A stretch of DNA of 62,393 bases, from assembly GCA_001788015.1 (NCBI GenBank), contig MFZO01000044.1, forward strand, positions 1-62,393, given 5' to 3'. Below the pieces are notes generated by a model, which saw only the letters and a list, made by a program, of their open reading frames with translations, was not told the DNA's origin and ran no database searches. This DNA is from Candidatus Roizmanbacteria bacterium RIFCSPHIGHO2_02_FULL_38_11. GTDB lineage: Bacteria > Patescibacteriota > Microgenomatia > UBA1406 > GWC2-37-13. Shown here one piece after another: positions 27,009-60,337 of this stretch. Made by a program: the position numbers and the translations under genes. Every line of letters begins with the position of its first letter. Within the stretch, counting starts at the first letter, position 1.

Positions 27009-27027
27009 AAATTAATAATTAATCAAT

Positions 27028-27085
27028 GTCATGCTGAACTTGTTTCAGCATCTGTTTTGAGATCCCGAAACAAGTTCGGGATGAC
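27028..27085. repeat. GTCAT...ATGAC hairpin element (2 modules)
   Basis: GTCATGCTGAActtgtTTCAGCATC plus GATCCCGAAacaagTTCGGGATGAC. Confidence 0.75.
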
Positions 27086-27095
27086 GTAATGAATT

Positions 27096-28118
27096 ATGGT
27101 TGGTATAGTTTCCTACGGTTTTTATATTCCAAAGTATCGTATAAAAGTCGAAGAGATAGCAAAAGTTTGGGGTAAGAATCCGGAAGATGTAAAAAAATCC
27201 CTGCAGATAAATGAGAAAGCCGTTTCTAGCAACGACGAGGACTCTTTAACTATGGCTTACGAATCTGCCTCCATGGCCTTAGACGATTTGCCATTGAAAA
27301 AAGATGATATTAAAGTAATTTTTTTTGGATCAGAAACCTCTCCTTATGTAGTCAACCCTGCCTCGACTATTCTAGGTGAGTTTTTAGGAATAGATCATAA
27401 CTATCTTGCCTATGATACGCAGTTTGCCTGTAAAGCGACAACAGGCGCATTGATATCAGGAGTATCTCTAATTAAGTCAAATTTTACGAAATATGCCTTG
27501 ATTGTTGCTTCTGATAAAGCCAATGCTAAACCGCATGATGCACTTGAATATACTACCTCGTCAGGGTCGACTGCCTTTTTATTAGGAAAAGAAAATGTAG
27601 CCTTAGAAATTATTGCTGCAAATTCTTATTCTTCTGATACGCCAGATTTCTGGAGAAGAGAAGGAATCCGTTACCCTTCGCATGGAGGAAGATTTACCGG
27701 CAAACCATCTTATTTTTTTCATATAAATCAGGCTGTAAAAAAATTGCTTGATAAAACCAATTTAAAACCTTCGGACTTTACTTATGCTGTTTTTCACATG
27801 CCAAACGGCAAATTTCCCCGGGAAGTTGCCAGATCCTTAGGATTTTCGAGTGACCAGATTGAACCTTCTTTGATAGTTGATTATTTAGGTAATTCTTATA
27901 CTGCTACAGCCTTAATGGGTTTAGTTTCGGTCTTGGAAAAAGCAAAAAGTGGAGAGATGATTCTGCTCGCTTCTTATGGATCCGGTGCAGGTTCAGATAC
28001 ATTTGTTTTTAAAGTAACAAGTCATTTGGAAAAAAGAAGAAAAACTTTTAGAAAATTGATTGAAGATAAAAAATATATCGATTACCCAACCTATTTGAAG
28101 TTTATGAACACGATTTAA
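27096..28118 (+). CDS. HMG-CoA synthase, archaeal-type short form
   Basis: VGIVSYGFYIPKYRIKVEEIAKVWG N-terminus; 340 aa; condensing-enzyme fold motifs (FACKATTGAL, HMPNGKF, GNSYTA). Confidence 0.85.
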   Translation: MVGIVSYGFYIPKYRIKVEEIAKVWGKNPEDVKKSLQINEKAVSSNDEDSLTMAYESASMALDDLPLKKDDIKVIFFGSETSPYVVNPASTILGEFLGIDHNYLAYDTQFACKATTGALISGVSLIKSNFTKYALIVASDKANAKPHDALEYTTSSGSTAFLLGKENVALEIIAANSYSSDTPDFWRREGIRYPSHGGRFTGKPSYFFHINQAVKKLLDKTNLKPSDFTYAVFHMPNGKFPREVARSLGFSSDQIEPSLIVDYLGNSYTATALMGLVSVLEKAKSGEMILLASYGSGAGSDTFVFKVTSHLEKRRKTFRKLIEDKKYIDYPTYLKFMNTI

Positions 28119-28199
28119 GAAAGTCAATTAGTTAGTTTGTTAGTTAATTGCTTAGTTTTAAATCTAATTTACTAATAACTAAGTAACCAAAAAACTACT
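28119..28199. repeat. AT-rich TTAGTT/AACTAA inverted-repeat spacer
   Basis: ttagttagtttgttagttaattgcttagtt ... actaataactaagtaac; cttagtt pairs with aactaag. Confidence 0.5.
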
Positions 28200-29351
28200 A
28201 TGGTTTCACTTATAGGCTATTACACCACACAGTTTGGAGAACTTTGGGAAAAATCATTATCAGATTTGATCGAAGAAGCTATAAACGGAGTTTTAAAAAA
28301 TACTAGATTGGATAAAAAGCAGATTGGTGCGATTTTTTTTTCTAATATGTTAGCGGGAGTTTTGGAAAATAATTTACATACGGTCTCAAAAATAGCCGAA
28401 ATATTAGGGGTAAATATTCCAATATTCAGAGTCGAAGCAGCCTGTGCTTCAGGCGGTGTAGCTTTTCATCTGGCAAAAAATTACTTGGATGCTAATCCAG
28501 GCAAAAATGTTTTAGTTATTGGGGCGGAAAAAATGACCGATTATTCTCCGGAAGAGACAACATCTGCCTTAGCTTCGGCTGCGTCAGGAGAAGAGCAAGA
28601 GGCTGGCCTGACTTTCCCGGGACTCTATGCTATGATGGCTCAATATTATTTAGGTAAATATAAATATACGGAGGAAAATTTGGCTTACGTCAGCCTTAAG
28701 AATCATTATCATGGGACATTGAATGACAAAGCTCATTTTAGAAAACAAATCACAATAGAACAGGTAATGAGCAGTCCTTATATTGCCTATCCACTAAAAG
28801 TTTTGGATTCGTGTACTGTTTCGGATGGTGCTTCGGCTCTTGTTTTATCCAGTGATCGGAATGTCGGAAGAAAAGAAAAAAGTGAAATCAAAGTTTTAGC
28901 CAGTGAAACAGCAAACGACAAAATTTCTTTGAAAGAGAGAAATAGTATAGATGAAATTTTAGCAACAGAAATTTCTGCAGATAAAGCCTTTACAAAGGCT
29001 AAAGTTAATCGAAAAGATATAAAAGTAGCAGAAGTGCACGACTGTTTTTCGATAGCTGAGCTTTTAGCTATGGAGGATCTTGGATTTTGGAAAAAAGGAA
29101 AAGGAGGAAAAAGAATAAAAGAGCTGTCGACAATGTATGGTTCAGATGGCGATTTAATTGTAAACACATCTGGAGGACTCAAAGCGTCGGGTCATCCGGT
29201 AGGCGCAACCGGCATAAAACAAATTGGTGAGATTTTTTTACAGCTTACTGGTCAGGCAACAAACAGACAGGTAAATGGTGCTAAATTTGGATTGGCTCAT
29301 AATGTTGGAGGCAGCGGCGGAACAGCAGTTGTGACAATACTTGGAGTTTAA
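28200..29351 (+). CDS. thiolase (acetyl-CoA acetyltransferase), archaeal/SCP-x type
   Basis: Active-site VEAACASGG; C-terminal GHPVGATG and HNVGGSGG. Confidence 0.87.
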   Translation: MVSLIGYYTTQFGELWEKSLSDLIEEAINGVLKNTRLDKKQIGAIFFSNMLAGVLENNLHTVSKIAEILGVNIPIFRVEAACASGGVAFHLAKNYLDANPGKNVLVIGAEKMTDYSPEETTSALASAASGEEQEAGLTFPGLYAMMAQYYLGKYKYTEENLAYVSLKNHYHGTLNDKAHFRKQITIEQVMSSPYIAYPLKVLDSCTVSDGASALVLSSDRNVGRKEKSEIKVLASETANDKISLKERNSIDEILATEISADKAFTKAKVNRKDIKVAEVHDCFSIAELLAMEDLGFWKKGKGGKRIKELSTMYGSDGDLIVNTSGGLKASGHPVGATGIKQIGEIFLQLTGQATNRQVNGAKFGLAHNVGGSGGTAVVTILGV

Positions 29352-35375: not shown

Positions 35376-37241
35376 ATGAAATTTAGTCAACTGGCCCACT
35401 TTATCGAACAGATCGAAGAAACTTCCTCTCGCTTAACTATAACCAACCTTCTAGCGGAACTTTTCAAAAAATTAAATCGGGAAGAAATTGGAAAAACCGT
35501 CTATCTGCTTCAAGGAAGACTGGCACCACTTTATAATGCGATTGAATTCGGAATGGCGGAGAAAATGATTGGTAGAGCTGTAGCAACAGCTTTACATCTG
35601 GATAAAAAAAAATTTGTACAGCAATTCAAGAAGATTGGTGATCTAGGCGGAGCCACTGAATATTTTAAAAAACAGATGAGATCATTAGAATTAGAAGACC
35701 TGCCTGCCGGCAGGCAGGGTTTGTCTATATTGGAAGTATACGACATTCTTCATGAACTGGCTACAGCTGCAAAAGTTGGATCACAGGATATTAAAGTACA
35801 GATTCTGGCTAAACTCATCAGGCAATTGGATCCGTTATCTTGCCGATATTTGGTTCGCATTCCAATAGGGGTCTTACGCTTGGGATTTTCTGATATGACT
35901 GTTTTAGACGCCTATTCTTGGATGCTCAAGGGCGATAAAAGTCATAGATCCCAAATTGAAAAAGCTTACCACGTAAGGCCGGATCTCGGACAGCTAGGAT
36001 ACATAATAAAAAAAGAAGGAATTTCGGGATTAAAAAAGATTAAGCCAGCAATTTTCACCCCTATTCTGATGATGAAAGCTGAACGATTGTCATCAGGACA
36101 AGAAATTATAGAAAAGATCGGTCGTTGTGCCGTCGAATATAAATACGATGGATTTAGGTTGCAAGTTCATTTCAAGAAATCCGAAATCCGAAATCCGAAA
36201 TCCGAAACAAATTTTAAATCCAAAATTATAAATCCAAAACATAAAATACAGGTGAGACTTTATTCTAGAAATTTAGAGGATGTTTCGTTTATGTATCCGG
36301 ATGTCATTGAAGGGGTAAAAAAGGAAGTGAGAGCAAACGAGATTATTTTTGAAGGCGAGGCAATAGGATTTGATCCGCACTCGGGTAACTTTTTACCTTT
36401 TCAACAGACTGTTCAGAGAAAGAGAAAATACGGCATTGAAGAAAAGGCTAAAGAAATTCCACTGAAGCTGTTTGCTTTCGAGCTTTTGTATCTCGATGGA
36501 AAGAGCTTTCTTGATGTGCCGTATATTGAGCGTCGAAGAGCCTTGGAAAAGTCGATCCAGCTTACAGGTGACATCTTCAAAGACGCGCTGCTTTTAGCAT
36601 CAGAAAATATTCTCGACGACCCGAAGAAACTGGAACTTTTGTTTGATGACGCAGTTTCGAAAGGACTCGAAGGAATCGTTGCTAAAAAATTGAGTGGAGT
36701 CTATAAACCGGGAGCAAGGGAATGGAATTGGATTAAGTTTAAGCGAAGCTACAGCTCTAGAATTGAAGACTCCATCGATTGTTTGGTGATGGGATATGAT
36801 TATGGAAAGGGGAAAAGGGCCGGATTTGGGATTGGCGCTTTTCTGGTTGGAATTTATGACGAAAAACAGGACAAGTTTTTGACCGTTTGCAAAATCGGCA
36901 CGGGACTCTCTGATGAGGAATGGAGAGAGTTAAAAGTTAGATGTAAAAAGTTAGAAGTTAGAAGTAAACCGGCGTTATATGAAGTTGATAAGATGATGGA
37001 GTGCGACGTATGGATTTCGCCATCAATAGTTGTTGAGATTAAAGCAGACGAAATTACCAAGTCACCGGTACACACGGCTGGCAGAAAGCTGAAATCCTCC
37101 AAATCAGGCAAGGCTTTTGAAGTTGATATACCCGGATTTGCTTTACGTTTCCCCCGCCTGGAGCATTTTCGAGATGATAAGCGGCCTGAAGATGTAACGA
37201 CCTTAAAAGAAGTTGATAAAATATATTCACATGGAAAATAA
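35376..37241 (+). CDS. lig: ATP-dependent DNA ligase (archaeal/eukaryotic Lig1-like, three-domain)
   Basis: Motif I EYKYDGFR, EGEAIG, LEGIVAKK, WIKFK; N-terminal DNA-binding domain and C-terminal OB domain lengths fit. Confidence 0.9.
   Translation: MKFSQLAHFIEQIEETSSRLTITNLLAELFKKLNREEIGKTVYLLQGRLAPLYNAIEFGMAEKMIGRAVATALHLDKKKFVQQFKKIGDLGGATEYFKKQMRSLELEDLPAGRQGLSILEVYDILHELATAAKVGSQDIKVQILAKLIRQLDPLSCRYLVRIPIGVLRLGFSDMTVLDAYSWMLKGDKSHRSQIEKAYHVRPDLGQLGYIIKKEGISGLKKIKPAIFTPILMMKAERLSSGQEIIEKIGRCAVEYKYDGFRLQVHFKKSEIRNPKSETNFKSKIINPKHKIQVRLYSRNLEDVSFMYPDVIEGVKKEVRANEIIFEGEAIGFDPHSGNFLPFQQTVQRKRKYGIEEKAKEIPLKLFAFELLYLDGKSFLDVPYIERRRALEKSIQLTGDIFKDALLLASENILDDPKKLELLFDDAVSKGLEGIVAKKLSGVYKPGAREWNWIKFKRSYSSRIEDSIDCLVMGYDYGKGKRAGFGIGAFLVGIYDEKQDKFLTVCKIGTGLSDEEWRELKVRCKKLEVRSKPALYEVDKMMECDVWISPSIVVEIKADEITKSPVHTAGRKLKSSKSGKAFEVDIPGFALRFPRLEHFRDDKRPEDVTTLKEVDKIYSHGK
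36177..36204. repeat. tandem heptamer (AAATCCG) x4 inside the ligase CDS
   Basis: aaatccg aaatccg aaatccg aaatccg read directly; followed by aaatcca-type degenerate copies to about 36240. Confidence 0.85.
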
Positions 37242-38328: not shown

Positions 38329-40032
38329 TTACTCATCGGATTTCACATCGTATACAGTGTAGCCTTCGTTTTCGAATACTTTGGGAAGTTCATAGCGATG
38401 AGGTTTTTCTATTACCAAGTAAGATGCTTTATAGGTTTTGGCAATTCGTTTAAAATCTTCGGCAGATAGTGAGTAGTAAGCCTTAAGCGTTTGCCTAATG
38501 CTGGCGAACGGGTCTCCATTAAATTTTTGGATGACACCAGGAGCAAGTTTTTCAAAACGTTCTTTCCAGGGAGATAATCCTTGAGGAACCACAGCGATTT
38601 CGGCGATGTCGAAAAGAGAAGCGATGGAAGATCGATCTGATCCTACCCGCCACTCAATATAGTAAAACCAGCTTTTGTTAGGTGGCGTGATGAAAACATC
38701 TGTTTTATCGGTTTGACTACGTGCCCACAGTTGGACATCAACATAGGCAGACTTTTGTGGATAGATGTGGATACCCGGTTGCCATACGTTCAACGCGTAT
38801 CCCAGAATTGCTAAAGTTACAAAAGCGATTGGGACTATAAAAGAAGTCAGCACAACCCAATATTGTGAAGAGATAACTTTTCGGATCAATAAAACTACCA
38901 GGAGTACCGCAGGAATTACCGAAAAGATAATCGTAGTAATAAGTAAAACAAAATGGAGATTGTTTATTTTTTTAGTCCCGTAAAGTTTCACAACGTAATG
39001 AGTGAAATAAAGTAGAGCAAAAACGTTGATGAATAATCCTGCTCTGAAGATTTGAGACTGTATAATGATCGTAGAAGGATATATATAAGATGCAAAGGCT
39101 TGAACGACTATAATTATAAAAAGCGCAATCATGAATAAACTGATAGTGGTAGTATGTTTTAATCCAGCCAGGGCTTTTCTTGCAATGAGAAATAATATGA
39201 TGCTGCTTACTCCACCCAGGGTGAGAAGTGGTGCATAGAAGTTTGAGCCAAAAAGGAAAAAAAGATGGTATAGAACTCCACGGCTTACAACCCAAAACCA
39301 TTCAGGATTTGACTCAAGCTGTACAGGTGATCCGCCAAACTTCCAGATTAACACCGGGAGCGCCCCAATTATAAAAGCAATGAATCCAGCTATAATATTT
39401 TGATAGCGTATTTCTCGTATTTTTATCAATGAAGCAAAAAGAAACATGAACAGGACAAAATTTACAGAGACAATATGCAGGTTGTATAAAATCCCAAGCA
39501 AAAAGAAAGCAGATATATAACGTTTATCAAGATATAAATTGATTGCCATAAGAAGAAAAGGTAAAACAAAGATTCTATTGACAAGAGTCCACTCCACTAC
39601 AGGAAAACCAGAAAATCCAATATGGGGCAACATAAACACAAAAATCGTTAAAAAAGAGGTGAGTGGATTGTTAAACAGTTTTTTGCTGATATTCCAGAGT
39701 CCCCAAAACGTCAGATAGAGCACGCCGATGTATGTAACAAACATACTTATTTCAAGAATTCCGAGCTTATAAAAAGGGATGAACAAAAACCAAAAAAAGG
39801 AATAGTGGTGCAGACGCAGATCAATGAAATAATCGTTTGGATAAAGCGAAGGATCTGCGAACTTTTTTAAAAAGGGAATATGAGAAGCTTGATCAAGTGT
39901 GCCGAAGTAATAACCCATCGTAAGAAGACTGACAAGAGTCGCCACTGCAAATAAAATATGCTTTAACAAAGAATATCGCCAAACTGACAGACTGATTGAT
40001 TGTAATCTTAACGTAATATTTTTCACAAACAT
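38329..40032 (-). CDS. polytopic membrane protein with C-terminal soluble domain (GT-C-like topology)
   Basis: 567 aa with about 12 TM helices followed by about 130 aa hydrophilic; neighbours are GT2 and YYY-type proteins. Confidence 0.5.
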   Translation of the reverse strand: MFVKNITLRLQSISLSVWRYSLLKHILFAVATLVSLLTMGYYFGTLDQASHIPFLKKFADPSLYPNDYFIDLRLHHYSFFWFLFIPFYKLGILEISMFVTYIGVLYLTFWGLWNISKKLFNNPLTSFLTIFVFMLPHIGFSGFPVVEWTLVNRIFVLPFLLMAINLYLDKRYISAFFLLGILYNLHIVSVNFVLFMFLFASLIKIREIRYQNIIAGFIAFIIGALPVLIWKFGGSPVQLESNPEWFWVVSRGVLYHLFFLFGSNFYAPLLTLGGVSSIILFLIARKALAGLKHTTTISLFMIALFIIIVVQAFASYIYPSTIIIQSQIFRAGLFINVFALLYFTHYVVKLYGTKKINNLHFVLLITTIIFSVIPAVLLVVLLIRKVISSQYWVVLTSFIVPIAFVTLAILGYALNVWQPGIHIYPQKSAYVDVQLWARSQTDKTDVFITPPNKSWFYYIEWRVGSDRSSIASLFDIAEIAVVPQGLSPWKERFEKLAPGVIQKFNGDPFASIRQTLKAYYSLSAEDFKRIAKTYKASYLVIEKPHRYELPKVFENEGYTVYDVKSDE

Positions 40033-48217: not shown

Positions 48218-51200
48218 ATGGCAGATCCAGTTGAAACATTGGGTCAAAGAACAATCGCAGACACGATTATAGAAGCAAGAGACAGCATTCATAAAGAGTT
48301 GCCGTCTGCTCAAAGGAATCCACTGGAAATGAATATTTTGATAACTCGATTGAGACAGGACTTGAAAGACGCCGAGTCACCCGCTAAAGAATTTATTGCT
48401 AATGAAAAAAAAGTAAGTATTGGCCAAGCTCTGCCGGTTAAGCAGGCAGAAGGTGACATGGCGCTTCATAAAGTTATTAGAGCGGTTGAGGCGGCTAAAC
48501 AGGGGGTGCTGGTTTCCAAAACAACCCAAGGACAGGAACTTTTAGTAAAACTTTCCGAAAAAAGTTATACATCTTATTCTGTTGCCTCTGCGATAGAAGC
48601 AAATCTAGCCGATTACTTGATAGGTAACAAAAATATAACTATTAGCACTCAACCGGGAACTAAATCAGATTTTCAGCGCGCATTTGAAAATCTTAATTCT
48701 GATAATGTTACTGCAGCGACATTGATAGGTCAATCAATAATCGAGATGGCAAGGGAAGGAAAGATTGCGGGTCTCACAGAGGATGCGGCAAGAGAAAAAT
48801 TTGAAGTGAAGGAAGAAGAAAAAAGAAGAGAACCGAGAACCCAGGCTGATAGAGGATTAATAGAAGCTGGTTCAGGGCCTGAGAATGAAATGAGAGATTT
48901 CATAGAGCAGTATCCAAAAAAAGACCACGCATTAATTAATGCCTTATATAATCCCAGAGAATTTGAAAGTTTTGTTCAAAGAGAATATTACGAGAAGATC
49001 AAAAAAGAGTTTGAAAATAAGGGATTCACGGGAGACAAGCTTGAGGAGGAGATAGGTAAAGAACTTTCGGAAAGGCTAAGACATGATATAGCTTTATTGG
49101 TTGGTAGGCTTTATCAAAATGTTGATGAATCACATCCGTCTCAATTTTGGGAAGAAGCAGAAAAAAGAGGCGGATTTTGGAGAAATGCCGAGGTCTTTAG
49201 CGAAAATTTGTTGAGACAGATAAGGAATTTGAGAAATGCTGAATTTTCTGTAGATTTTCAATCTAAAACGATGTTCTTCATTAAAGATCAGGAAACTTAT
49301 TATGAAAGAGTTCCGGCGATACCAAGATTTGACAATGAAGCAGTAAGCGAAGAGACAAGAAAATTTGTCAAGCCATTGAGAAAAGATAGAAGAGTTGATA
49401 TTGGTACTTTTTTGCATTCCGTAGAAACGTTGGCTCATTCACACGAGATTCAAACCAGAAAGTTTCTGCACAACGGCCGGGCTTTAATCTATAACCCTAC
49501 TGATCCAGAGAAAGGTTATTACTCTAGTCTATCAGGATATGCAGATAAATTTCTCCCGGCCACTTCGGTAGACGTCCTTTTCACTCTTCCCGACGCCGAG
49601 GAAATTATGGCCGCATCACAGTTAGAAGATAAATTATTCGAAGCAGACTTTGCCAGAACCAACTGGGTTCATCAGCCGGGGTCTGCCGGTTTGGGGCCGC
49701 TGGGAATGACAGAACTAGATGAAGAATCTTTGGAGCGCTTGATGATGATTAATCCTAAGTTGAAGGACGACGAGTGGAGAGCTAAAAGGGCTCTCATTAT
49801 GGGAATAGGTGATAATTATACGATATCTTTAAGACATTTAGAGACAGGGGCTTATGCCGATCCTTCTATGAATCCGGAAGAAGGAATGGGGCCAACTTAC
49901 GGTTCATACGGTCCAAGAGACTCTATCCCCTACATGGCATTTAATATGCTGGCCCATGATAATATGAGATGGCAAGCGGAGAGGCTCTGGTTGGGCAATC
50001 TTTTATTTTTGCCTGTGAGAGGTAAAGATTTGGCAGGACACTTTGGATTTATGAAGTTCTGGGATCATCGAACGCTTTTGGACGAGATGAAGAAAAGCAT
50101 AGACTCTTACATAAAAGGCAGGCCGCCGGAGGATGTTGAAAAAGGAGTTGTAAGATGGGTTGATATCATTAATCCCGGAAGGGTTGGGAGTATATACACA
50201 CGCGGCGGATGGAGAGAATTTTACGCTTATGAGACTCATTTAGTGAGACCCTCTGAAGTAGAATTAAAACAAGGAATAAGGTTTAATATTACAGAGTCTT
50301 GGAAGGCATTGGAAAATGTAGGGGTAGAGTGCCTAAAAGATTTTGTCGGAAGAATAAGCAAAAAGCCTACGTCTTTAGACAAAACTTTTTTTACAGACGA
50401 TGGCAGGGACAATAGAAGAGGATTAATGGAACATATTTATAAGAAATATTTTTCTTCAAATGCTACCGCTGATGAGATTGAAGCTAAGTTTAAGCAATTG
50501 GAAAAGAATCCAGATCAACTTGAATCAGCTTACAAAACATTTTTTTATCAGGCTTTTGCTCGGGCCATGAAACAAAGAATTCCAACAAAGTTTCTTAGGG
50601 TTGAGCGAAATAGATTTGTTTCAGGTAGAAAAAGAGCCTACGAAGAAGTCAGGAAAAACAGCGGTTTGTCTGATGGGGATTTTGCCAGGGCAGTAAACGA
50701 TGTTATCACGGCCGAAGTTTATCTAAGGGGAGAAACGAGCAAAATTTTAAAAGATCAATATAAAGCTGGCAAGAAGTTAAACGAAATAAAAAATATCGAT
50801 TACACTTTGACAGAAGAAAAACTGCGCTTTTATTTAGGTGAGAAATTTGGTCTAAAAGGAACGGATGCAGAAAGAATAGAGAAAGCAGTTAAAACCTTTA
50901 AAACAATTAGTGCATTTGCCGATGAGAGCTATCTAGACGGATTTGCAAAAAAATACGCAGCAGATATGCACGAACACGGATTCCCTTTTGCTATAGCTGT
51001 TGAGGAATTAGATCGTAGCCTTCTTGCTCATAGAGCAGCCGGCGAAAGAACAATAGCTAGAGCTTTGGGTGACACGTCTATGGTAGAGATGCAGGTTGCC
51101 AAGACGATCTCAGGTTACTTTAAAACCATTCAAGAAGTGGCGGTTAATGGAAAGAAAGATATTAGCGAAATTGTTAACTCTATCAATACAGTCAAGACAA

Positions 51201-51709
51201 CAATAGAGATGCTTATTGGTAAAGATGCTGCCCATAGGATTGCACATCATATGGCCGCATTAACCATTTCTTATTTTAAAAAGGATACGGTTTCGGATAA
51301 TATTTTTACCAGGTGGTTTGTTATGAATAAGCCGCATTCTCTGGCTGCCGAGTTTGCCGGAACCTGGAGAGGAGTGTGGGAATGGCAGCCAGACGAGATA
51401 ATGACTTTTTGCAATGAGCTGGAAAAAAGGAGTATTTTACCTAAAGAGCCATTTGAAAAACAAAAAGCCCCAGAATGGCTGAAGAAACCTTCAGCAGAGT
51501 TTAACTTTTTGGGCCAAAAAATTATAATCGGCGGAAAAAGAAAGCCTGATTATGTATTTCACGGCAAGACGCTACGAGAGGAGTTTGGAGGCACCTGGAA
51601 ACATATGATAAACCATGTTCTCAATAAATATTTGCCGTTATTTGCTCTTTTTATACTTTTTCAATATTTACGAAAGGCATATAGTGAGTCGGCAGGACAG
51701 AAAAAATAA
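48218..51709 (+). CDS. giant orphan protein (1163 aa), soluble with a single C-terminal TM helix (tail-anchored)
   Basis: 3.5-kb uninterrupted ORF; no signal peptide; no Walker or other motif found by eye; LPLFALFILFQYL about 15 aa from the C-terminus. Confidence 0.6.
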   Translation: MADPVETLGQRTIADTIIEARDSIHKELPSAQRNPLEMNILITRLRQDLKDAESPAKEFIANEKKVSIGQALPVKQAEGDMALHKVIRAVEAAKQGVLVSKTTQGQELLVKLSEKSYTSYSVASAIEANLADYLIGNKNITISTQPGTKSDFQRAFENLNSDNVTAATLIGQSIIEMAREGKIAGLTEDAAREKFEVKEEEKRREPRTQADRGLIEAGSGPENEMRDFIEQYPKKDHALINALYNPREFESFVQREYYEKIKKEFENKGFTGDKLEEEIGKELSERLRHDIALLVGRLYQNVDESHPSQFWEEAEKRGGFWRNAEVFSENLLRQIRNLRNAEFSVDFQSKTMFFIKDQETYYERVPAIPRFDNEAVSEETRKFVKPLRKDRRVDIGTFLHSVETLAHSHEIQTRKFLHNGRALIYNPTDPEKGYYSSLSGYADKFLPATSVDVLFTLPDAEEIMAASQLEDKLFEADFARTNWVHQPGSAGLGPLGMTELDEESLERLMMINPKLKDDEWRAKRALIMGIGDNYTISLRHLETGAYADPSMNPEEGMGPTYGSYGPRDSIPYMAFNMLAHDNMRWQAERLWLGNLLFLPVRGKDLAGHFGFMKFWDHRTLLDEMKKSIDSYIKGRPPEDVEKGVVRWVDIINPGRVGSIYTRGGWREFYAYETHLVRPSEVELKQGIRFNITESWKALENVGVECLKDFVGRISKKPTSLDKTFFTDDGRDNRRGLMEHIYKKYFSSNATADEIEAKFKQLEKNPDQLESAYKTFFYQAFARAMKQRIPTKFLRVERNRFVSGRKRAYEEVRKNSGLSDGDFARAVNDVITAEVYLRGETSKILKDQYKAGKKLNEIKNIDYTLTEEKLRFYLGEKFGLKGTDAERIEKAVKTFKTISAFADESYLDGFAKKYAADMHEHGFPFAIAVEELDRSLLAHRAAGERTIARALGDTSMVEMQVAKTISGYFKTIQEVAVNGKKDISEIVNSINTVKTTIEMLIGKDAAHRIAHHMAALTISYFKKDTVSDNIFTRWFVMNKPHSLAAEFAGTWRGVWEWQPDEIMTFCNELEKRSILPKEPFEKQKAPEWLKKPSAEFNFLGQKIIIGGKRKPDYVFHGKTLREEFGGTWKHMINHVLNKYLPLFALFILFQYLRKAYSESAGQKK

Positions 51710-51751
51710 ATCTCGCTTGAGTTTTTCGATTTTTTTAGGTGTAATGAAAAT

Positions 51752-53083
51752 ATGAAGAAAATTTTTATTTCTTGCTTTTTTATATCTTTATTTTTTCTGT
51801 TTCAGCTTAAACCAGTTGTTTTAGCCGGTCCCCAATGTAATGCTTTAGGAGGAACCTGTAAGCTAAATTGTGATACAAACACAGAAGAACCTAAAGCTAC
51901 TCAAGACTCTCAGGATTGTCCGCTCAGCGGGCTAGGTGGAAATACCCGAGAAACATGTTGTGTTCCTCTTGCAGTACCTCGTGATGGAAGACAATGTAGA
52001 GCTTCAGGATGGACTTGTGAAAACTATTGTACGGGAGCCCCCAAAGGTGAACAAGATTGTCCAAGGGTAAGCGGTGGATTGGGGGGACCAATCCAACAAG
52101 TTTGTTGTGATCTTTCTGCCCCCTCTCCTACGCCTCCAACTGGAGCTCAATGTAAAGCTCAAGGATGGACTTGTGAAACCTATTGTTCAGGAGCGCCTAA
52201 AGGGAACCAAGATTGTCCAAAAGTCAACACAGGATATGGACTGGCTCAACAAACTTGTTGTGATCTTGCTGCACCATCTCCCACCCCTCCAACAGGTGCA
52301 CAATGTAGCGCATTAGGAGGGACTTGTGTATTAAATTGCCTAGGAGATCCTAAGGGAACCCAAGACTGTCCACCGACCAACACAGGATATGGGGGAGAGC
52401 AACCACAAACTTGTTGCGTCGCTACTACTCCTGCTAATCCTTTAGACTTTGAAATTCCAGGTGTGGGGTGCGGAGTGCCAAACGATACGACAGGAGCAAA
52501 TAAATGTTGTCAGACTACTAAACCAAACTGCAATTTTGGGGTAATGGAAGTACTTCAGGTTATACCTGGAATTGGTGATTGGATAAGAGGAGCTAAAGCT
52601 CAATGCGAAAGTCTAGGTGAATTTCAAGAAAAATACGGCAAGCTAAAATGTTTATACGGTCAGGAAAAGTATGATGCTGCTGGTAATTGTGGTTGCGTTA
52701 CAGAAGCCACAAGCAGTGCAATTCCTGAAATTAGAGAGATGTGTAAAAAATATCTTGGGACGTCTAACCCCAAAGAGTTTGAGGCATGTGATAAATGTGC
52801 CGCTACTGGTTTTTATACAGGCATAGGCTGTATACCGCTTACGCTAGGGGGTTTTACCAGCTTTGTATTCAGTTTTGGCATTGGTTTAGGCGGAATCATT
52901 GCTCTACTTTGTATTATTTACTCGGCGTTCGTCATGCAGACCTCAGGTGGTAATCCTGAAAGGATCAAAAAAGCCCAAGAGAACTTGACTTCGTGCATCA
53001 TGGGATTAATGCTGATAATCTTTGCCATTTTTATATTGAGGGTAATAGGTGTAAATATTTTAAAGATACATGGGTTTGGATAA
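51752..53083 (+). CDS. secreted Cys-rich repeat protein fused to a pilin-like two-helix C-terminus
   Basis: Signal peptide (..VVLA/GP); 4 six-Cys repeats; a further Cys-rich middle region; C-terminus TM - TSGGNPERIKKAQENL - TM, like the small pilin-like ORFs. Confidence 0.65.
   Translation: MKKIFISCFFISLFFLFQLKPVVLAGPQCNALGGTCKLNCDTNTEEPKATQDSQDCPLSGLGGNTRETCCVPLAVPRDGRQCRASGWTCENYCTGAPKGEQDCPRVSGGLGGPIQQVCCDLSAPSPTPPTGAQCKAQGWTCETYCSGAPKGNQDCPKVNTGYGLAQQTCCDLAAPSPTPPTGAQCSALGGTCVLNCLGDPKGTQDCPPTNTGYGGEQPQTCCVATTPANPLDFEIPGVGCGVPNDTTGANKCCQTTKPNCNFGVMEVLQVIPGIGDWIRGAKAQCESLGEFQEKYGKLKCLYGQEKYDAAGNCGCVTEATSSAIPEIREMCKKYLGTSNPKEFEACDKCAATGFYTGIGCIPLTLGGFTSFVFSFGIGLGGIIALLCIIYSAFVMQTSGGNPERIKKAQENLTSCIMGLMLIIFAIFILRVIGVNILKIHGFG
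51836..52417 (+). repeat. four tandem coding repeats of about 150 nt (six-Cys module)
   Basis: Repeats 2 and 3 are clearly similar at the DNA level (caatgta(g/a)agct..ggatggacttgtgaaa..tattgt..gattgtcc..tgttgtgatct..); spacing C-x6-C-x3-C-x9/15-C-x12-14-CC. Confidence 0.85.
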
Positions 53084-53085
53084 AG

Positions 53086-54762
53086 TTATTGTGTTGATTT
53101 TTTCCCTCCTGGCAATGTTAATCCTATTTTTTCTCCAGCCGCTTGCAATGCCCCTAAACCTAATCTCATACTTCCCAGCTGACCAAGTAAACCAAGTCCG
53201 CCGCCTGCGGCAGTTCCAGCCCCGGCAAAGAATGTTCCAAGTCCTGCCGTATCCAATAGTCCAGGTTTAGGTACAAATAGTTGTTTTACGGCTTTTACTA
53301 AATCCGGCGTTAAAAATAAAATAGCCATTGCTACGATTAGACTAAAGTCGCTAGGATCGATACTTCCCATAAAGGGAAACTGGATAAGAGATTCAGCAGT
53401 TGTAGGCCCAGAGTATATAGCGTTTGTGATAAGATTTACCAACATAAATATTGCAACCATGGTGGGGAAGACTATAAGTTCGGAAATAAGATTTTTTAAC
53501 CAGCTCGAAAAAGCCGACTGGCCCGGGACTGCTTCTAAAAGCAAATAAAGTGGGGAAATGATTATGGTCAAAAGTATTTTTATATAGGCAGATATTATAA
53601 GAAATATCAGCCTAAAAAAGATCAGTAGAATCGTAAAAAAAATTAGCAGACCAAGAAGAAAGGGAACAACAACTGTACCTCCTATGACTATACCAATAAT
53701 TAAACCGACAATATTAAGTGGCGCTTTTATTAGTTCGCCTAAACCTTCCCACTGGAATCCAAATCCGAGAAGGGTTGCTATACCTTCAAGATGGAAGGCG
53801 TCAATGATATTTTTAAAGAAAGTTTTTTGCGTTAGCCAGGGATAAACAAAAACTACTCCGATAATACTTCCAATAATACGTACGACTGCGCCAATTTGAG
53901 GCACTATATTAAGCAAAGCGTTGGGAAGGTCAAATAGTACTCTGAAAATATTGTTACCCGTACCCGCGGTGAAAGTGAAGAATAAATCATGAGGAGCTGC
54001 CCGGAGATAAACGCGCTGTTTATCGGCTATCTGGGCTGGATTTAAGCCTCCTGCTGGACCAATAATCGAAACTATAAGAATTATTGCTATGTACATAAGA
54101 TCGATCAGGAATCCGGCAATCGCAAAGGAAAAAGTAATTAAAATAAGAGAAATCACGATTTTAGGCAGAGAATTTTCCACAGAAATAACAGTTTGAGGAT
54201 TGAGCTTCATACTGAACATGATCATGAAACCGATTGTGATCAATACCAAAACAATCACTAGATAGGCGACGTTTCTGAAAGCATTCCATATTTTGGCAAA
54301 GGGCTTAATAGCGCCAAAACCTATGCCCTCGGCGGCGTAAGTTTTTGGAATAAAACCGGCATCTTGCAGTCCGTTGTAGGCCCACCAGACGCCAGAGGCA
54401 GGAGGATTAGTATAGGGAAGAATAATCAGTTTGCTTAAAAAACCGAAAGTACTTTTATTAAAATTCTTATCCCCGTCTGACGGATTGTTCGTGCAGGCTT
54501 CACCGACCAAGCCGCACATTGTTAATCGATACAAAGCAATGGTTAGTTTTCCCTCTTTAGTTTTTTTGAGTTTTGGATCGTTTAATACTTTATAGATCTC
54601 CACCCGATTTTTTTTGACGGGATCTTGCGTGATTTTCGGTTTATCTTTGTTGATGAAATGAATAAAGAGAGAGATGATAATAAAGTAAACTACAATTACT
54701 AGAAAAATCTTTTTTCCTATATTGATTAGTTTCTTTAACCCGGCAAGGTAAAATGGAAGCAT
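53086..54762 (-). CDS. polytopic membrane protein (558 aa), VirB6/TrbL-like topology, Gly-rich C-tail
   Basis: N-terminal anchor, about 100-aa loop, at least 8 TM helices, C-terminal GLGTFFAGAGTAAGGGLGLLGQLG. The VirB6 analogy rests on topology and context only. Confidence 0.45.
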   Translation of the reverse strand: MLPFYLAGLKKLINIGKKIFLVIVVYFIIISLFIHFINKDKPKITQDPVKKNRVEIYKVLNDPKLKKTKEGKLTIALYRLTMCGLVGEACTNNPSDGDKNFNKSTFGFLSKLIILPYTNPPASGVWWAYNGLQDAGFIPKTYAAEGIGFGAIKPFAKIWNAFRNVAYLVIVLVLITIGFMIMFSMKLNPQTVISVENSLPKIVISLILITFSFAIAGFLIDLMYIAIILIVSIIGPAGGLNPAQIADKQRVYLRAAPHDLFFTFTAGTGNNIFRVLFDLPNALLNIVPQIGAVVRIIGSIIGVVFVYPWLTQKTFFKNIIDAFHLEGIATLLGFGFQWEGLGELIKAPLNIVGLIIGIVIGGTVVVPFLLGLLIFFTILLIFFRLIFLIISAYIKILLTIIISPLYLLLEAVPGQSAFSSWLKNLISELIVFPTMVAIFMLVNLITNAIYSGPTTAESLIQFPFMGSIDPSDFSLIVAMAILFLTPDLVKAVKQLFVPKPGLLDTAGLGTFFAGAGTAAGGGLGLLGQLGSMRLGLGALQAAGEKIGLTLPGGKKSTQ

Positions 54763-55243: not shown

Positions 55244-56109
55244 AATGATGGACAACCAAATCCCCTTAAAGAATCGTTAGTAAACGGCGTTCCCTGTATA
55301 TTCCCACTGTAAACGGGATATCTGGATATTTTTCTGGTGCTATTGGCATCGTATGTTTCTATATAGCCATTATAGCTTGAATCAAGGTTAACAGTCTTGA
55401 GGACTGCCGTGTGATTTTTATTCGTTACATGAACACCGGGAGTATATTGGAAGAAAGTCGCACAGCCTGGTTTAACCGTATTTAAAGCCTGTTGACGTTC
55501 TCCAGCTGAGGCAAGTTGATAAGTCGGAGGATTGGCGAAGTAATCTATGAATTTTACGCTGTAGGGAATATAGTTGTAGCCAGACGTCGTCATAAAAAAT
55601 TGTTGCATATTTTTGGTGGCCAGATGTGCACGGGTCAATCCGGTAAGCCCGGCAAGGTTATAAGCATTAATTACAAGGTAAGTACACCAATAAAGGTTGG
55701 ACGTACTTGTCGCAGGGCTGTAAAAAGCTGTGTATGATCCGTTGGAAGGCGGGTCAGTCAGTCGATTAAAATACCAGGAAGGCGGCCAGATAATATCTTC
55801 TCCCTCAAGTTTTTCACTGATGGCGATTGTATTCGTGAGGATATCTCCCAATTTGCCCGCAGGAATCGTAGGAAAAGGTTCGGATGTTGTTTGAGGTGGT
55901 GGTCCAGAGGGATTTGGACTGATAGGAAGGGGTGGTTGCGAAGCGGGATTAAAACTAAAGAATATTTTAAGAAGCTCTTGCAGAAAAAAAAGCGGATTTG
56001 AATAAGTTGTTTGAGGCGGGTTTTGGGCTGTAACGGGCGGCGGAAGAATAATAAATGAAAGAATTAAAATTAAAACTGTGGTGTTGACAATCAATAAAAA
56101 TTTCTTCAT
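55240..56109 (-). CDS. secreted protein with possible papain-fold (CHAP/NlpC-P60-like) hydrolase domain
   Basis: Signal peptide, Pro-rich linker, candidate nucleophile in [16 protein letters not shown] and His in NKNHTAVL. The catalytic assignment is unverified. Confidence 0.45.
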
Positions 56110-56122
56110 AATAATATTTATT

Positions 56123-59100
56123 ATGGCTTTATTAGATTTTATTAAAAAACCAAAACAAAAAGCAAGCGCAGTTCCTCAAGGCGCAGTTCAAAACAATACA
56201 ACTACTCAAACCCACGTAGTTGAGACGACCCAGACGACTCAATCCACTGGGCCACAAACGTATTCTGGCATCGGTGCTCCTCCTCAGCATCATGTTGAAA
56301 GTTCGCAAACGACGGTAGCGAAAACTACAGCTGCGACTCCAGGTGCCCCAACTGCTTCGGCAAATTTGTCCAGCGAGGAAAAAAAACGAGAGGAGATTGA
56401 CCTTATGACACACCTGACCCAGAGATCCAACCGAGTATTTCTCTCCGCTCAAAACAAAGCGAGGGAATTGAAATTAGACTTTGTCGACAGTGAGCATTTA
56501 CTACATGGGCTTTTGTCAGATAGCGAAATCTACAATCTTTTCATCGAGTTTAAGATTCACCCCCAACTTATAGAGGAAGAATTAAAAAAGATTTACAAAA
56601 ACGGAGCAAGCCAGAAGATGCCTCAGCTATCACCCCGAGTCAAACGTATTCTAGGTCTGTCCCTCACAGTTGCCAGGAAGCTTCGTTTTGAGTTTATATC
56701 GCCGGAACATATTCTCTTGGCTCTATATGAAGAAGGAGAAGGTGCAGGAGCAAAGATATTGACTAAAATGGGACTTAAAAAACAAGACTTAAACAAGAAA
56801 ATCATCGGCAAAAAAGAAGGGCTTGAAAAACAGGATAAAGAAGCGGATACAAAAAAGAACACAGTTGATCGCTACACAATCGACTTAACGGCAAAAGCCG
56901 CGCAAGGGCTTTTGGATCCCGTTGTTGAGAGATCAGATGTTATTGAACGAGTCATACATATTCTTTCCAGAAGAACAAAAAATAACCCAGCTTTAGTCGG
57001 AGAAGCCGGCGTTGGTAAGACGGCTGTCGTTGAAGGTCTGGCTCAGAAAATTGTTACAAAGGGCGTACCGGAATCACTCCTCGATAAAAGAGTCTTACAG
57101 CTCGACTTGATGAGTATAATAGCCGGAGCTTCTCATAGAGGTGAGTTTGAAGAAAGAATGAAAGAATTGATTGAACAGGTACAGGCGAGTAAAGGACAGA
57201 TAATTCTCTTTATTGACGAGATTCATAATATTGTGGGCGCAGGTGCGTCGGGTGAAAATGCTCTTGACGCTTCCAATTTCCTTAAACCGGCTTTAGCCCG
57301 AGGCGAACTGCAGCTTATTGGTGCGACCACGCTTACAGAATATCGAAAATACATAGAAAGAGATCCGGCTTTAGAGCGAAGATTTCAACCTGTTTTGGTT
57401 CAAGAGCCGACGATCGAACAAGCTATAAAAATGCTTAAAGCGATAAAGGATAAATATGAAGCGTTTCACCGCGTAAAGATTCCTGATGATGTGGTCGAAG
57501 CAGCGGTAAAATTCTCAAAGAGGTACGTAGGAGATCGGTTTTTACCCGATAAGGCAGTTGATCTTATTGACGAAGCAGCCTCGGCGGTTCGCTTACCGCT
57601 CATATCTCTTCCCGAAGTAATCAAATCTATTGAGACGCGGATAGCTGAATTAAATCAAGAGCTTCAGGAAGGGGAGAAACTGGGTGATAGAGTTAAGGTG
57701 CGGATTCTTCGATCTAAAATCGATGAGATAGAATCCACTCTAAAAGAGAAAAGGGGAGAATACGATATGAGAAAAGCTCAAACGACTTCAGCCGTTAGCG
57801 TTGATATTATAAAAGATATCGTTTCACGCTGGACGGGTATCCCAATCTCAAAAATCACCGAGTCAGAGCTTGAGCGTTTGGCACAGCTTGAGAAAATCAT
57901 GCATCAACGACTCATTGACCAGAATATAGCTGTGACTTCGGTAGCCGCAGCTGTAAGGCGAGGAAGAGCAGGATTAAAATCTACGCAAAGACCGATTGGC
58001 AGTTTTGTCTTTTTAGGTCCAACCGGTGTTGGAAAAACAGAGCTTGCAAAAACTTTAGCCGAAGTTTTATTTGGCCAGGAAGAAGCAATGATACGATTTG
58101 ACATGACAGAATATATGGAGAGGCATGAAGTGGCGAAGCTTCTTGGCGCGCCTCCCGGATATGTTGGATATGAAGAGGGAGGAAAACTGACAGAGGTAGT
58201 AAGAAGAAAGCCTTATTCGGTGGTTCTTTTTGACGAAGTAGAAAAAGCCCATCCGGATATTTTCAATATTCTTCTACAGATTCTTGACGATGGAAGGCTG
58301 ACTGATAATAAAGGTCATGTTATTTCGTTTAAAAACACAGTAGTCATCTGCACGTCAAATATTGGTACGCAGATGATTCAAGATGAGCTTTTAAAGAGTG
58401 GGAAAATAGAGATAGAAGAGCCGCCATTTTTGTCCACCTACACATTCTCACCAAGAGGTAGAGAAATATTGACGATTGGCACGAAGTATTTTGAAAGGGA
58501 AAAAGCAGTTGACAGTTGGAAGGAGGGAGTGCTTTTAGATTATTTTGCAGGCCAAGAAATAAAGCAGGATCAGTCAAAGGTTGACCAGCCTCTAACCGTA
58601 GAATCTTCGACCAAAGGTCGATCCACCGCTGGTGGAGACTTTCCCGTTCAGGGTTTTGCTACCCACACAATTTCTTTTAGAGGTGAAGAGCTTATAACAA
58701 AAGGTAATACGGTGTTTGTAAGAACTTCAACAACTGCAAAAATTTGGAAAACCACCACATTAATAGATTATTTTAAGGACGGAATTGTTGTTAATGCTCT
58801 TCCTGATGCACCAGAAGAGCAGCTTCCCACCGCAAGATTAAAGACTCACGCCTTTACGCCGGACGAGAGAGAAGTAGTGACATATAAAGACCGTTATTGG
58901 GTAAGAAAGGAAGGAATGAACGATTGGCAGACTGGTCATTTGAAGGATTATTTTACCGGAGCAGAAATCCAAGAGGCAGATCTTCAGAAAGCAACTAAAC
59001 AGGATCTAACTCCCCCTAAGGGGAGTCAAAAAGCCGCTAAGCAGGAGCAAAATGGTGTAAAAAGCGATGTCAAAAAAACCAATAAATTCTTTCCTACAGC

Positions 59101-60013
59101 CTATTGGGATATCCATACTTTCTCACCCTCAGGTAAAGAAATAATAATCTTAGGAGATACTGCTTGGTTTAGGAATGAAAGAAAAAATATATGGCAAACC
59201 CAATCGCTTAATGAATATTTTGGCAAAGATTTTCCGCTTGAAAAAGAACTTGAGGAGAAAAGAAAGGTTGATGAAGAAATTGATAAAAAGAAATACGATC
59301 TTATAAAAAGTAAAGTCACGGCAGAACTCCGTAAATTCTTTAGACCTGAACTTCTCAATAGATTCGATGAAGTTATCATCTTTGAACCTCTCAAGTTCAC
59401 TCACATGATAAAGATAGTTCAATTGCAGCTTAAGGGCTTGGCAAAGTTGTTAGAAGATCAAGATATAGGATTTATCTATACAGATTCGGCCGTAAAAGAG
59501 ATAGTGAGGGAAGGATTTGATCCTATATATGGGGCGAGACCGTTAAGGAGAGCGATTCAAAAGGTTATTGAAAATCCCATCTCCACGCTTATCATTGAAA
59601 AAAAAGTTAAAGCAGGAAATCAGATACAGGTCGATTTTGACGGGGAGAGCTTTATCTTTAATATAGAAAAAGTGGAGTTAGTGCCAGAAGAGATGCTAAA
59701 AAAGCGGACAATAAAGAACTTCTTATGCGAAGCTTGTGGCAATCATTTTATGACTTCAGTCGTGAAAAATTCTACGGTCATCTGCAGCCGATGTGCCTCA
59801 ACCAAAGTCCAAGAAGTGATAGAGTCACCTAAGGTTATACCTCTGGACGAAAAATCTTCTACAACCGATAAGGATGGAAAGCCCTCCAACGCTTCCGCTT
59901 CGGAAGGTGAAGAAGATAAGAATAAGTTGTCTAACGATGGAAAGTTAAGCGGGGACAAAAACCTTGACGGAAGACAAAAATCGCAGACAAATTTCCCGGC
60001 AACCCATGCATAA
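56123..60013 (+). CDS. ClpC/ClpB-type double AAA+ protein with N-terminal T/Q-rich extension, ~300-aa insertion in NBD2 and C-terminal zinc ribbon
   Basis: Two Clp_N repeats; NBD1 [15 protein letters not shown] / ILFIDEIH; short M-domain; NBD2 [12 protein letters not shown] / [13 protein letters not shown] / ICTSN / [11 protein letters not shown] / GARPLRR. Alternative in-frame start at 56405 (GGAG upstream). Confidence 0.85.
58421..59233 (+). repeat. four degenerate coding repeats of about 45-50 aa inside NBD2 of the AAA+ gene
   Basis: [40 protein letters not shown] / [42 protein letters not shown] / [40 protein letters not shown] / [40 protein letters not shown]. Confidence 0.8.
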
Positions 60014-60016
60014 TAA

Positions 60017-60337
60017 ATGGATAATAGATATTTAGCACAGCAAATCTGTATTGGTGGACAATGCGTGACTGGGGTTCTTGACCCTAAGATTCAAACTTTG
60101 GGAGACTTAGTCAATAGAGTCATACAGTTTCTTATTCCTCTTGCAGCTGTAATCCTTTTGGTGGTTTTCATCTGGGGCGGGTATGATTATATGATGTCTC
60201 AAGGAAGCCCAGAAAAAGTAAAATCTGCTCAGGCAAAGATTACGACTGGAATTATTGGTTTGATTCTTCTTCTTATCTCCTTTGTGTTGGTGAAGCTGAT
60301 CAGTTCAATTTTTGGTTTGGGAGGAGGGATAATTTGA
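60017..60337 (+). CDS. small two-helix pilin-like protein (TrbC/VirB2-like T4SS-pilin pattern)
   Basis: TM1, then SQGSPEKVKSAQAKITTGI, then TM2; ATG lies 3 nt after the AAA+ gene stop. Confidence 0.5.
   Translation: MDNRYLAQQICIGGQCVTGVLDPKIQTLGDLVNRVIQFLIPLAAVILLVVFIWGGYDYMMSQGSPEKVKSAQAKITTGIIGLILLLISFVLVKLISSIFGLGGGII

Follow-up and report, generated by a model that had tools for sequence, protein, structure and literature searches.

A cysteine-rich VirB2-like pilin with four tandem six-cysteine modules in a Roizmanbacteria genome

Gene and protein architecture

The stretch of DNA analyzed here (62,393 nucleotides (nt) in full length, hereafter the window) comes from an ultra-small groundwater bacterium of the Roizmanbacteria type, and the open reading frame (ORF) list places in it, at 51752-53083 on the plus strand, a gene for a cysteine-rich VirB2-like pilin of 443 amino acids (aa). 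An initial annotation, made from the letters of the sequence, had described this protein as a signal peptide followed by four tandem six-cysteine modules (51836-52417), a further Cys-rich region and a pilin-type two-helix module, and our analysis confirmed this architecture. The pattern C-x6-C-x3-C-x9(15)-C-x12-14-CC occurs exactly four times in the protein (aa 29-70, 82-119, 134-170 and 185-222), and these occurrences span precisely nt 51836-52417. The gene is laid out as follows.

51737-51741, plus strand: Shine-Dalgarno-like AGGTG, 10 nt 5' of the ATG, read straight from the sequence
51752-53083, plus strand: whole pilin gene with four N-terminal six-Cys modules (ORF list; protein P0121, on 11 public contigs)
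51752-51826, plus strand: putative Sec-type signal peptide, aa 1-25 (MKK, hydrophobic core, VLA before G), from sequence features and an AlphaFold2 helix at residues 2-18
51827-51988, plus strand: module R1, aa 26-79, then linker VPLAVPRDG (profile match, E 6e-16)
51989-52144, plus strand: module R2, aa 80-131, with APSPTPPTG linker (Tandem Repeats Finder, pattern, and profile match, E 5e-19)
52145-52297, plus strand: module R3, aa 132-182, with APSPTPPTG linker (75.8% nt identity to R2; absent from the relative on L006)
52298-52450, plus strand: module R4, aa 183-233, with linker to the core (the copy modelled by AlphaFold2; profile match)
52451-52843, plus strand: 12-Cys core, aa 234-364, predicted extracytoplasmic, alpha/beta, conserved in the family (kept in the ~245-aa Roizmanbacteria homologues; AlphaFold2 confidence ~90)
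52844-53080, plus strand: VirB2-like two-helix hairpin, aa 365-443, predicted to lie in the membrane (Pfam match to PF18895 at aa 377-432, 31.5 bits; AlphaFold2 helices)

Each module is about 45 residues long and holds six cysteines. Tandem Repeats Finder reported the region 51991-52416 with a period of 153 nt, 2.8 copies, 74% matches and a score of 403, and a profile built from 14 modules, among them the window's own four, scored each of the four copies at E 6e-16 to 5e-19 and found no further copy in the window. Of the four copies, R1 (C-x6-C-x3-C-x15-C-x12-CC, net charge -3) diverges most. The PSPTPPTGA linkers noted in the initial annotation do join R2 to R3 and R3 to R4, but the linker between R1 and R2 reads VPLAVPRDGR. 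Of the 39 cysteines of the protein, the modules hold 24 and the core 12; two more lie in the hairpin and one in the signal peptide. Among the window's ORFs, no other has a comparable Cys content. The putative cleavage site of the signal peptide, between VLA and G, is placed from sequence features.

The C-terminal hairpin belongs to a known pilin family. Although the initial annotation had named the pilin similarity as a point at which its reading might fail, aa 377-432 match the Pfam family T4SS_pilin (PF18895; T4SS, type IV secretion system) over profile positions 17-71 of 71 with 31.5 bits, above the gathering score of 26.6. The traits of that family, a signal peptide, two hydrophobic helices and a short positive loop, are present in the protein. 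The hairpin also aligned with the pilin-like family of Mycoplasma integrative and conjugative elements (ICE), NF045849 or the Mbov_0395 family, with 24.4 bits and E 1.7e-5, which is under the cut-off of 40; members of that family are ~80 aa long and have no ectodomain. With an alignment of 82 family sequences, AlphaFold2 modelled aa 230-435 at a predicted local distance difference test score (pLDDT) of ~90, with helices at 365-397 and 402-431 and between them the loop NPERIKKAQEN with its basic RIKK stretch. When the full-length model was compared with PDB by Foldseek, generic helical hairpins (E at least 2) were the only matches.

The homologues are mostly ~245 aa long, come from Candidatus Roizmanbacteria and other Patescibacteria, and cover only the C-terminal 47% of the query, so that what they share with it is the signal peptide, the hairpin and the 12-Cys core. 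For the core, neither sequence profile nor fold comparison turned up a relative in PDB, and Pfam has none either; a profile of the whole family did not match any PDB sequence. In the core, the cluster representative P0001 (SRR3989344) differs from the window protein by G314C (nt 52691-52693), which creates a CCC triplet; this variant was the first sequence of the full-length AlphaFold run.

Carriers, copy number and selection

The modules are very rare. None of the four window modules matched Pfam even at E<=10, a scan of the protein against NCBIfam recognized the pilin part and no module family, and thus neither collection holds a known bacterial Cys-rich domain that matches the repeat. The initial annotation had proposed a profile search beyond this genome, and an exhaustive HMMER search with a 7-module profile through 1.84 billion representative proteins gave seven matches at E<=1e-3. 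Six of them are true carriers: P0002 and P0066, each with one module; P0123, in which another pilin backbone bears three modules in tandem; P0125, an N-terminal fragment carrying the module; P0126, with one module on a short pilin; and P0127, with one module and another Cys-rich stretch. The seventh, P0124, is a low-complexity, out-of-frame-looking repeat and was rejected. Other searches added P0039 with one module and P0122 with two. When the module region was searched in genome contigs and metagenome contigs, pattern matches were obtained, none of which was confirmed as a relative. Since only six true carriers were found among 1.84 billion representatives, the module is very rare, a lineage-specific invention and not a widespread system.

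All complete carriers (P0002, P0066, P0123, P0126, P0127, P0039 and P0122) end in a pilin-like hairpin. T4SS_pilin is the top Pfam match of P0123, P0126 and P0127 (17.6, 27.5 and 25.0 bits, respectively), and the other four have precomputed PF18895 matches and align with the hairpin of the query. P0126 and P0127 are each the first gene of an eight-gene array of small pilin genes, and within a few kb of P0123 are yidC, jag, rnpA and dnaA. The two arrays (L008 10001-13133 and L007 638-4201) consist of eight consecutive small genes each, mostly T4SS_pilin; the one on L008 is followed by proteins of 774 aa and 536 aa, neither of which has a Pfam match. In the literature searched we found no description of the six-Cys module, nor of its tandem array or of a fusion with VirB2-like pilins, as the initial annotation had supposed, but the anchor class and its arrays are already described (PMC12102498, PMC12857230).

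The copy number varies between close relatives. The window protein has four modules, its relative on L006 has two, P0123 has three, and P0002, P0039 and P0066 have one each, while P0003 (65% identical) and ~95 other relatives have none. The L006 relative, P0122, shares a 90% cluster and the synteny with the window protein; it carries an R2-like and an R4-like module and lacks R1 and R3. Among the family members in which the start of the core could be located, the core follows the signal peptide directly in ~95, and a handful have an insert there. These inserts are of unrelated, Cys-rich types: the six-Cys module, a 4-Cys repeat (P0031) and others (P0044, P0077). The insert of P0031 is a 16-Cys region composed of such 4-Cys repeats. 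The junction of signal peptide and core is thus a hot spot for small disulfide-rich modules; the six-Cys ones are gained or lost on short time scales, and the comparison suggests that the same N-terminal site may be a general cassette site for them.

Between the window gene and that of L006 the number of synonymous substitutions per site (dS) is ~0.3-0.37 along the whole gene, and the ratio of non-synonymous (dN) to synonymous substitutions is lowest in the core (0.07), somewhat higher in the hairpin (0.13) and 0.33 across the aligned part of the modules. By this measure the modules are functional and under purifying selection, which is weaker than on the core and the hairpin, and they evolve faster. 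DNA identity among the repeats is 62-76%. The initial annotation had seen a clear nucleotide similarity of R2 and R3, which we also found (75.8% DNA identity, 72.5% protein identity, dN 0.21), and had taken it as a sign of recent duplication. Because the dS of the pair, 0.63, exceeds the 0.3-0.37 that separates this strain from its closest relative, the duplication is not recent; R2 and R3 rather represent an old duplication that predates the split from the nearest sequenced strain and has been held by purifying selection.

Resemblance of the module to beta-defensins

The initial annotation had compared the modules with the beta-defensin and big-defensin cysteine framework, C-x4-8-C-x3-5-C-x9-13-C-x4-7-CC. 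The first three spacings do agree in R2-R4 (6, 3 and 9), but the third gap of R1, 15 residues, is outside the range. The fourth gap is longer than in beta-defensins, as the annotation had also stated, being 12-14 in the window and 8-14 in all 14 modules against 4-7, and so the full framework is not matched. What the modules share with beta-defensins and the C-terminal domain of big defensin (PF00711, PF13841 and PF14862; trans-defensin superfamily) is a set of six cysteines ending in CC, in 11 of the 14 modules a Gly at the second position before C2, and a predicted short helix with three strands; up to C4, the gaps of 6, 3 and 9 are identical to those of human DEFB106. All six cysteines are invariant across the 14 modules and so give no covariation from which their pairing might be read; the modules also have a Gly shortly before C4 and, in 13 of 14, a D-C-P motif.

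Four independent approaches all pointed to beta-defensins, weakly, as none was significant alone. When the module profile was compared with all PDB sequences, the sole match at E<=10 was human beta-defensin 106, at E 4.3 and over C1-C3. Pfam scans of the 14 single modules gave few matches, of which that of the P0127 module to Defensin_beta_2 (PF13841) was the best with 19.4 bits and E 0.0015, below the gathering score of 22.2; the same module also matched Defensin_big (PF14862) at E 0.08, and the gathering scores of Defensin_beta, Defensin_beta_2 and Defensin_big were not reached by any of the 14 modules. AlphaFold2, given the 14-module alignment, modelled R4 with a pLDDT of 79.7 and a predicted template modelling score of 0.53 as a helix at residues 3-7, which holds C1, and strands at 10-13 (C2), 19-22 and 40-43 (C5/C6). 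In a Foldseek search of this model against 350,542 PDB chains, the four matches at E<=10 were all beta-defensins (human BD-1 twice, crocodile CpoBD13 and mouse BD-7), with E 3.9-6.9 and template modelling scores of 0.37-0.54, none of them significant, and a library of viral structures gave nothing meaningful.

The fourth approach was an hhalign comparison of the module alignment with a hand-assembled set of 15 beta-defensin sequences, which gave P 0.0033 over 26 columns, from C1 to C4. Alpha-defensins and cysteine-stabilised alpha-beta (CS-alpha-beta) defensins, used as controls, gave P ~0.3; for the latter, the bacterial cis-defensin type, P was 0.31 with no aligned core, and the modules do not have the CxxxC...CxC signature. 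In a null that kept the Cys spacing by permuting within intervals, 8 of 150 permutations reached the real score, so that the signal is mostly that of the Cys framework and a few residues, namely the Gly ahead of C2 and the one ahead of C4. An earlier column-permutation null (0 of 200) had changed the Cys spacing and was discarded.

The likeness to defensins claimed in the initial annotation is thus borne out in direction, by the fold prediction with Foldseek, by the Pfam near-match in one relative and by hhalign, but every one of these signals lies below its threshold and membership in the family is not demonstrated. No threshold was passed, and with a fourth gap that exceeds the beta-defensin range and a neutral or acidic character (net charges of -3, 0, 0 and -2 for R1-R4) the module is not a demonstrable member of the defensin family. 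Beta-defensins are cationic, while these modules are arranged in tandem and form a covalent part of a bacterial membrane protein; nor do they fit the description of small secreted cationic peptides, their complete carriers being always pilin fusions. The resemblance may be convergent, the disulfide connectivity of the modules is only putative, and AlphaFold2 may just have reproduced a memorised fold from the Cys pattern. Weighing the model against these points, we regard a beta-defensin-like fold as plausible, somewhat short of an even chance, and homology to animal defensins as unproven and unlikely.

Multi-domain beta-defensins do exist in animals, namely the avian double beta-defensin AvBD11 and the lizard helofensin with four tandem domains, and these are secreted, soluble and cationic and have no membrane anchor. 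They likewise hold tandem beta-defensin-type domains in one polypeptide, a likeness of arrangement for which no sequence relationship is shown.

The defensins reported from bacteria are all of the cis type, and those of the trans type (alpha, beta, big and theta) are reported from animals only (PMC11561630); in the literature that we searched, no beta-defensin-like domain is described for Patescibacteria or any other bacterium. It is possible, if rather doubtful, that the module has a genuine trans-defensin fold (C1-C5, C2-C4, C3-C6), which would be the first in a prokaryote and would be used as a shuffled, copy-number-variable building block of a pilin and not as a free antimicrobial. Were the fold genuine, shared ancestry with animal defensins would still be very unlikely, and the case would otherwise be one of striking convergence. 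If structurally confirmed, even as a convergent one, a bacterial trans-defensin fold would matter to the evolution of defensins, which are known in this form from animals only (PMC11561630), and the module would offer a compact, non-cationic disulfide scaffold.

Genomic neighbourhood and possible role

The pilin gene lies between two genes with which it keeps a conserved order, and a second pilin gene is found 7 kb downstream.

48218-51709, plus strand: 1163-aa protein, synteny partner, ending 42 nt before the pilin gene
53086-54762, minus strand: 558-aa polytopic membrane protein, convergent, conserved neighbour and synteny partner
60017-60337, plus strand: second, ordinary short T4SS_pilin gene, 106 aa (PF18895, 32.7 bits; NF045849, 41.8 bits, at least the cut-off of 40)

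The 1163-aa protein has a C-terminal hydrophobic segment and no N-terminal signal peptide. Neither flanking protein gave a usable match in Pfam, NCBIfam or PDB sequences; the 558-aa protein could possibly be a divergent analogue of VirB6, a component that is undetectable in most Microgenomatia (PMC12102498). The order of ~1200-aa protein, pilin and ~560-aa membrane protein is kept in L001 (a Roizmanbacteria genome), L003 and L006. In L003 these genes follow those of a class-I tRNA synthetase, L34, YidC and Jag, and after the convergent ~560-aa protein come ClpB, a short pilin, an amino-acid-kinase-family gene (PF00696) and a RecF/SMC_N-type gene; the genes from ClpB to RecF/SMC_N are seen in both the window and L003, L001 and L006 covering only the stretch around the pilin.

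Patescibacteria have a monoderm-type T4SS, and their VirB2-like pilin genes often occur in arrays, notably in Microgenomatia (Quinonero-Coronel et al. 2025, PMC12102498; see also Wang et al. 2023, as summarised in PMC12857230). Their T4SS genes often lie near the replication origin beside dnaA, rnpA and rpmH (PMC12102498). In Southlakia epibionticum, the T4SS and its pilin array are essential for epibiotic growth (PMC12857230, PMC11665869), and the arrays have been proposed to diversify host interaction (PMC12102498, PMC12857230, PMC11665869). The window protein resembles these pilins in its signal peptide and its C-terminal two-helix hairpin above the Pfam threshold, in its host, which is likewise a monoderm member of the candidate phyla radiation, and in its origin-proximal type of neighbourhood with YidC and Jag; the window has a second short pilin, and module-bearing relatives head eight-gene arrays. 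Typical VirB2-like pilins, however, are ~100-130 aa long with almost no ectodomain, whereas the window protein would expose ~340 extracytoplasmic residues with 36 cysteines.

These features led us to consider, with about even chances of being right, that the protein is a disulfide-stabilised, copy-number-variable surface stalk or adhesin built on a patescibacterial VirB2-like pilin and contacting host cells. After Sec export and cleavage of the signal peptide, the ~340 N-terminal residues would lie outside the cell and could form up to 18 disulfides, and the hairpin would sit in the membrane with its basic RIKK loop towards the cytoplasm. Alternatively, the hairpin might be extracted and polymerised by a T4SS, which would leave the N-terminus on the outside of the filament; in the known VirB2 and TraA pili the termini face outward. 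The conserved 12-Cys core would then form the membrane-proximal part, and the distal part would consist of four small three-disulfide modules with Pro/Thr-rich linkers and a predicted beta-defensin-like fold of one helix and three strands. Such a chain could be a stiff, protease-resistant stalk or adhesive head, by rough estimate 15-20 nm long, that reaches through the envelope to a host cell or substrate. Judged by composition, Pro/Thr linkers together with 36 cysteines outside the membrane segments are typical of extracellular stalks. Changes in the number or type of modules between strains would tune reach, avidity or specificity, in line with a proposed role of divergent pilin paralogues in fitting Patescibacteria to their various hosts (PMC12102498). 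VirB5-type tip proteins and PrgB, a Gram-positive surface adhesin, have the role proposed here, the contact of a T4SS with its target cell, but the analogy is solely one of function: the proteins are not related in sequence or fold, and in the window protein it is the VirB2-like subunit itself that bears the putative adhesive part.

Several points weigh against the stalk or adhesin. To our knowledge, no pilus has been seen in any Roizmanbacteria, and an extension of 340 aa on every subunit could hinder polymerisation, in which case the hairpin may be a mere anchor. No binding partner or adhesin-type domain is recognizable in the protein. Unlike in the patescibacterial VirB2-like systems described, neither VirB4 nor another recognizable T4SS gene was found among the ORFs scanned in the 62-kb window, and therefore any tie of the pilin to a functional T4SS is putative in this genome. 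Nor was a thiol-disulfide oxidoreductase (a thioredoxin- or Dsb-like CxxC protein) found in the window, which says little for a stretch of only 62 kb. As to the fold, the modules were not modelled in the full-length AlphaFold2 run (pLDDT < 50), where the alignment across them is shallow, and the predicted fold of the module rests on one prediction from an alignment of 14 sequences.

The initial annotation had also entertained a toxin or antimicrobial role, in which membrane-active, defensin-like modules would be displayed on the pilin or released from it, as from a polyprotein precursor, and would kill or permeabilise a host or competitor. The Cys framework and the predicted fold point only to beta-defensins, tandem copies with short linkers resemble polyprotein precursors, and Patescibacteria must draw nutrients from their hosts (PMC11665869). 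We nevertheless consider such an effector improbable, because the modules are neutral or acidic and have no cationic or amphipathic surface, the linkers have no dibasic or other obvious processing sites, no complete free-standing module was found among the 1.84e9 representatives, where complete carriers are all pilin fusions, and the single-copy carriers (P0002, P0039, P0066, P0126 and P0127) do not fit a polyprotein. The modules might instead be ligand-free and serve as a passive spacer that lengthens and stiffens the ectodomain and so brings the core beyond the wall or S-layer, or as a decoy coat of variable antigenicity against phages and predators. A copy number of 0 to 4 beside a conserved core and hairpin would suit this idea, as would the Pro/Thr linkers and the fact that most family members function without any module; however, the modules lie N-terminal of the core and hence distal, so that they would not lift the core from the membrane, and several positions other than Cys are kept across very different pilin backbones (the Gly before C2 in 11/14, D-C-P in 13/14), which suggests a specific surface. 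A spacer or shield is thus unlikely, though it deserves to be kept in mind.

It is also conceivable that the hairpin is an anchor only and that the protein is a lineage-specific surface protein which works with its 1163-aa and 558-aa neighbours and has nothing to do with type IV secretion. The three-gene synteny in L001, L003 and L006, with no recognizable T4SS gene nearby, and the position of the gene amid the housekeeping genes for YidC, Jag and ClpB speak for it. We think this rather improbable, since the hairpin passes the gathering score of T4SS_pilin, other module carriers are found in classic VirB2-like arrays, and the T4SS genes of Patescibacteria typically occupy a similar origin-proximal neighbourhood near rpmH, rnpA and dnaA, with VirB6 usually too divergent to be found in Microgenomatia (PMC12102498). 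Finally, tandem repeats are prone to assembly errors, and the array could be a mis-assembled repeat or the gene a decaying pseudogene. We rejected this as extremely improbable: 11 contigs, which come from several public sources, carry the identical protein (P0121), so that it is not a one-off assembly artefact, repeats with 62-76% DNA identity are too divergent to be collapsed or expanded in assembly, and the ORF is intact, has a ribosome-binding site and shows dN/dS < 1 throughout.

A stalk or adhesin of the kind proposed would bear on a question about Patescibacteria more generally. The role of their pilin arrays is unknown, though an array was essential in the one species tested (PMC12857230, PMC11665869), and a variable disulfide-rich ectodomain on a pilin suggests that some of these pilins present host-contact structures. 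The module-bearing pilin is a concrete protein on which this can be tested, and if the trans-defensin fold holds true, it would help to tell which of the pilins in an array is the one in contact with the host.

The window contains further genes of note. The ClpB/ClpC-like ORF at 56078-60013 encodes 1311 aa, compared with 982 aa in the syntenic L003, and an insert of ~290 aa at ~58430-59270 interrupts its second AAA domain (Pfam AAA_2). An intein was considered for this insert and rejected, as it has no intein motifs and is made up of four repeats of ~40 aa with the pattern H(T/A)FSP.G.E...W...W....L.(D/E)YF, for which there is no Pfam match. Two ORFs of ~570-590 aa, at 18796-20559 (plus strand) and 38329-40032 (minus strand), had no Pfam match at E<=1e-4. 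In the regions 25830-29351 and 35376-37241 the window encodes 3-hydroxy-3-methylglutaryl-coenzyme A reductase and thiolase of the mevalonate-pathway type, together with an ATP-dependent DNA ligase of the archaeal/eukaryotic type.

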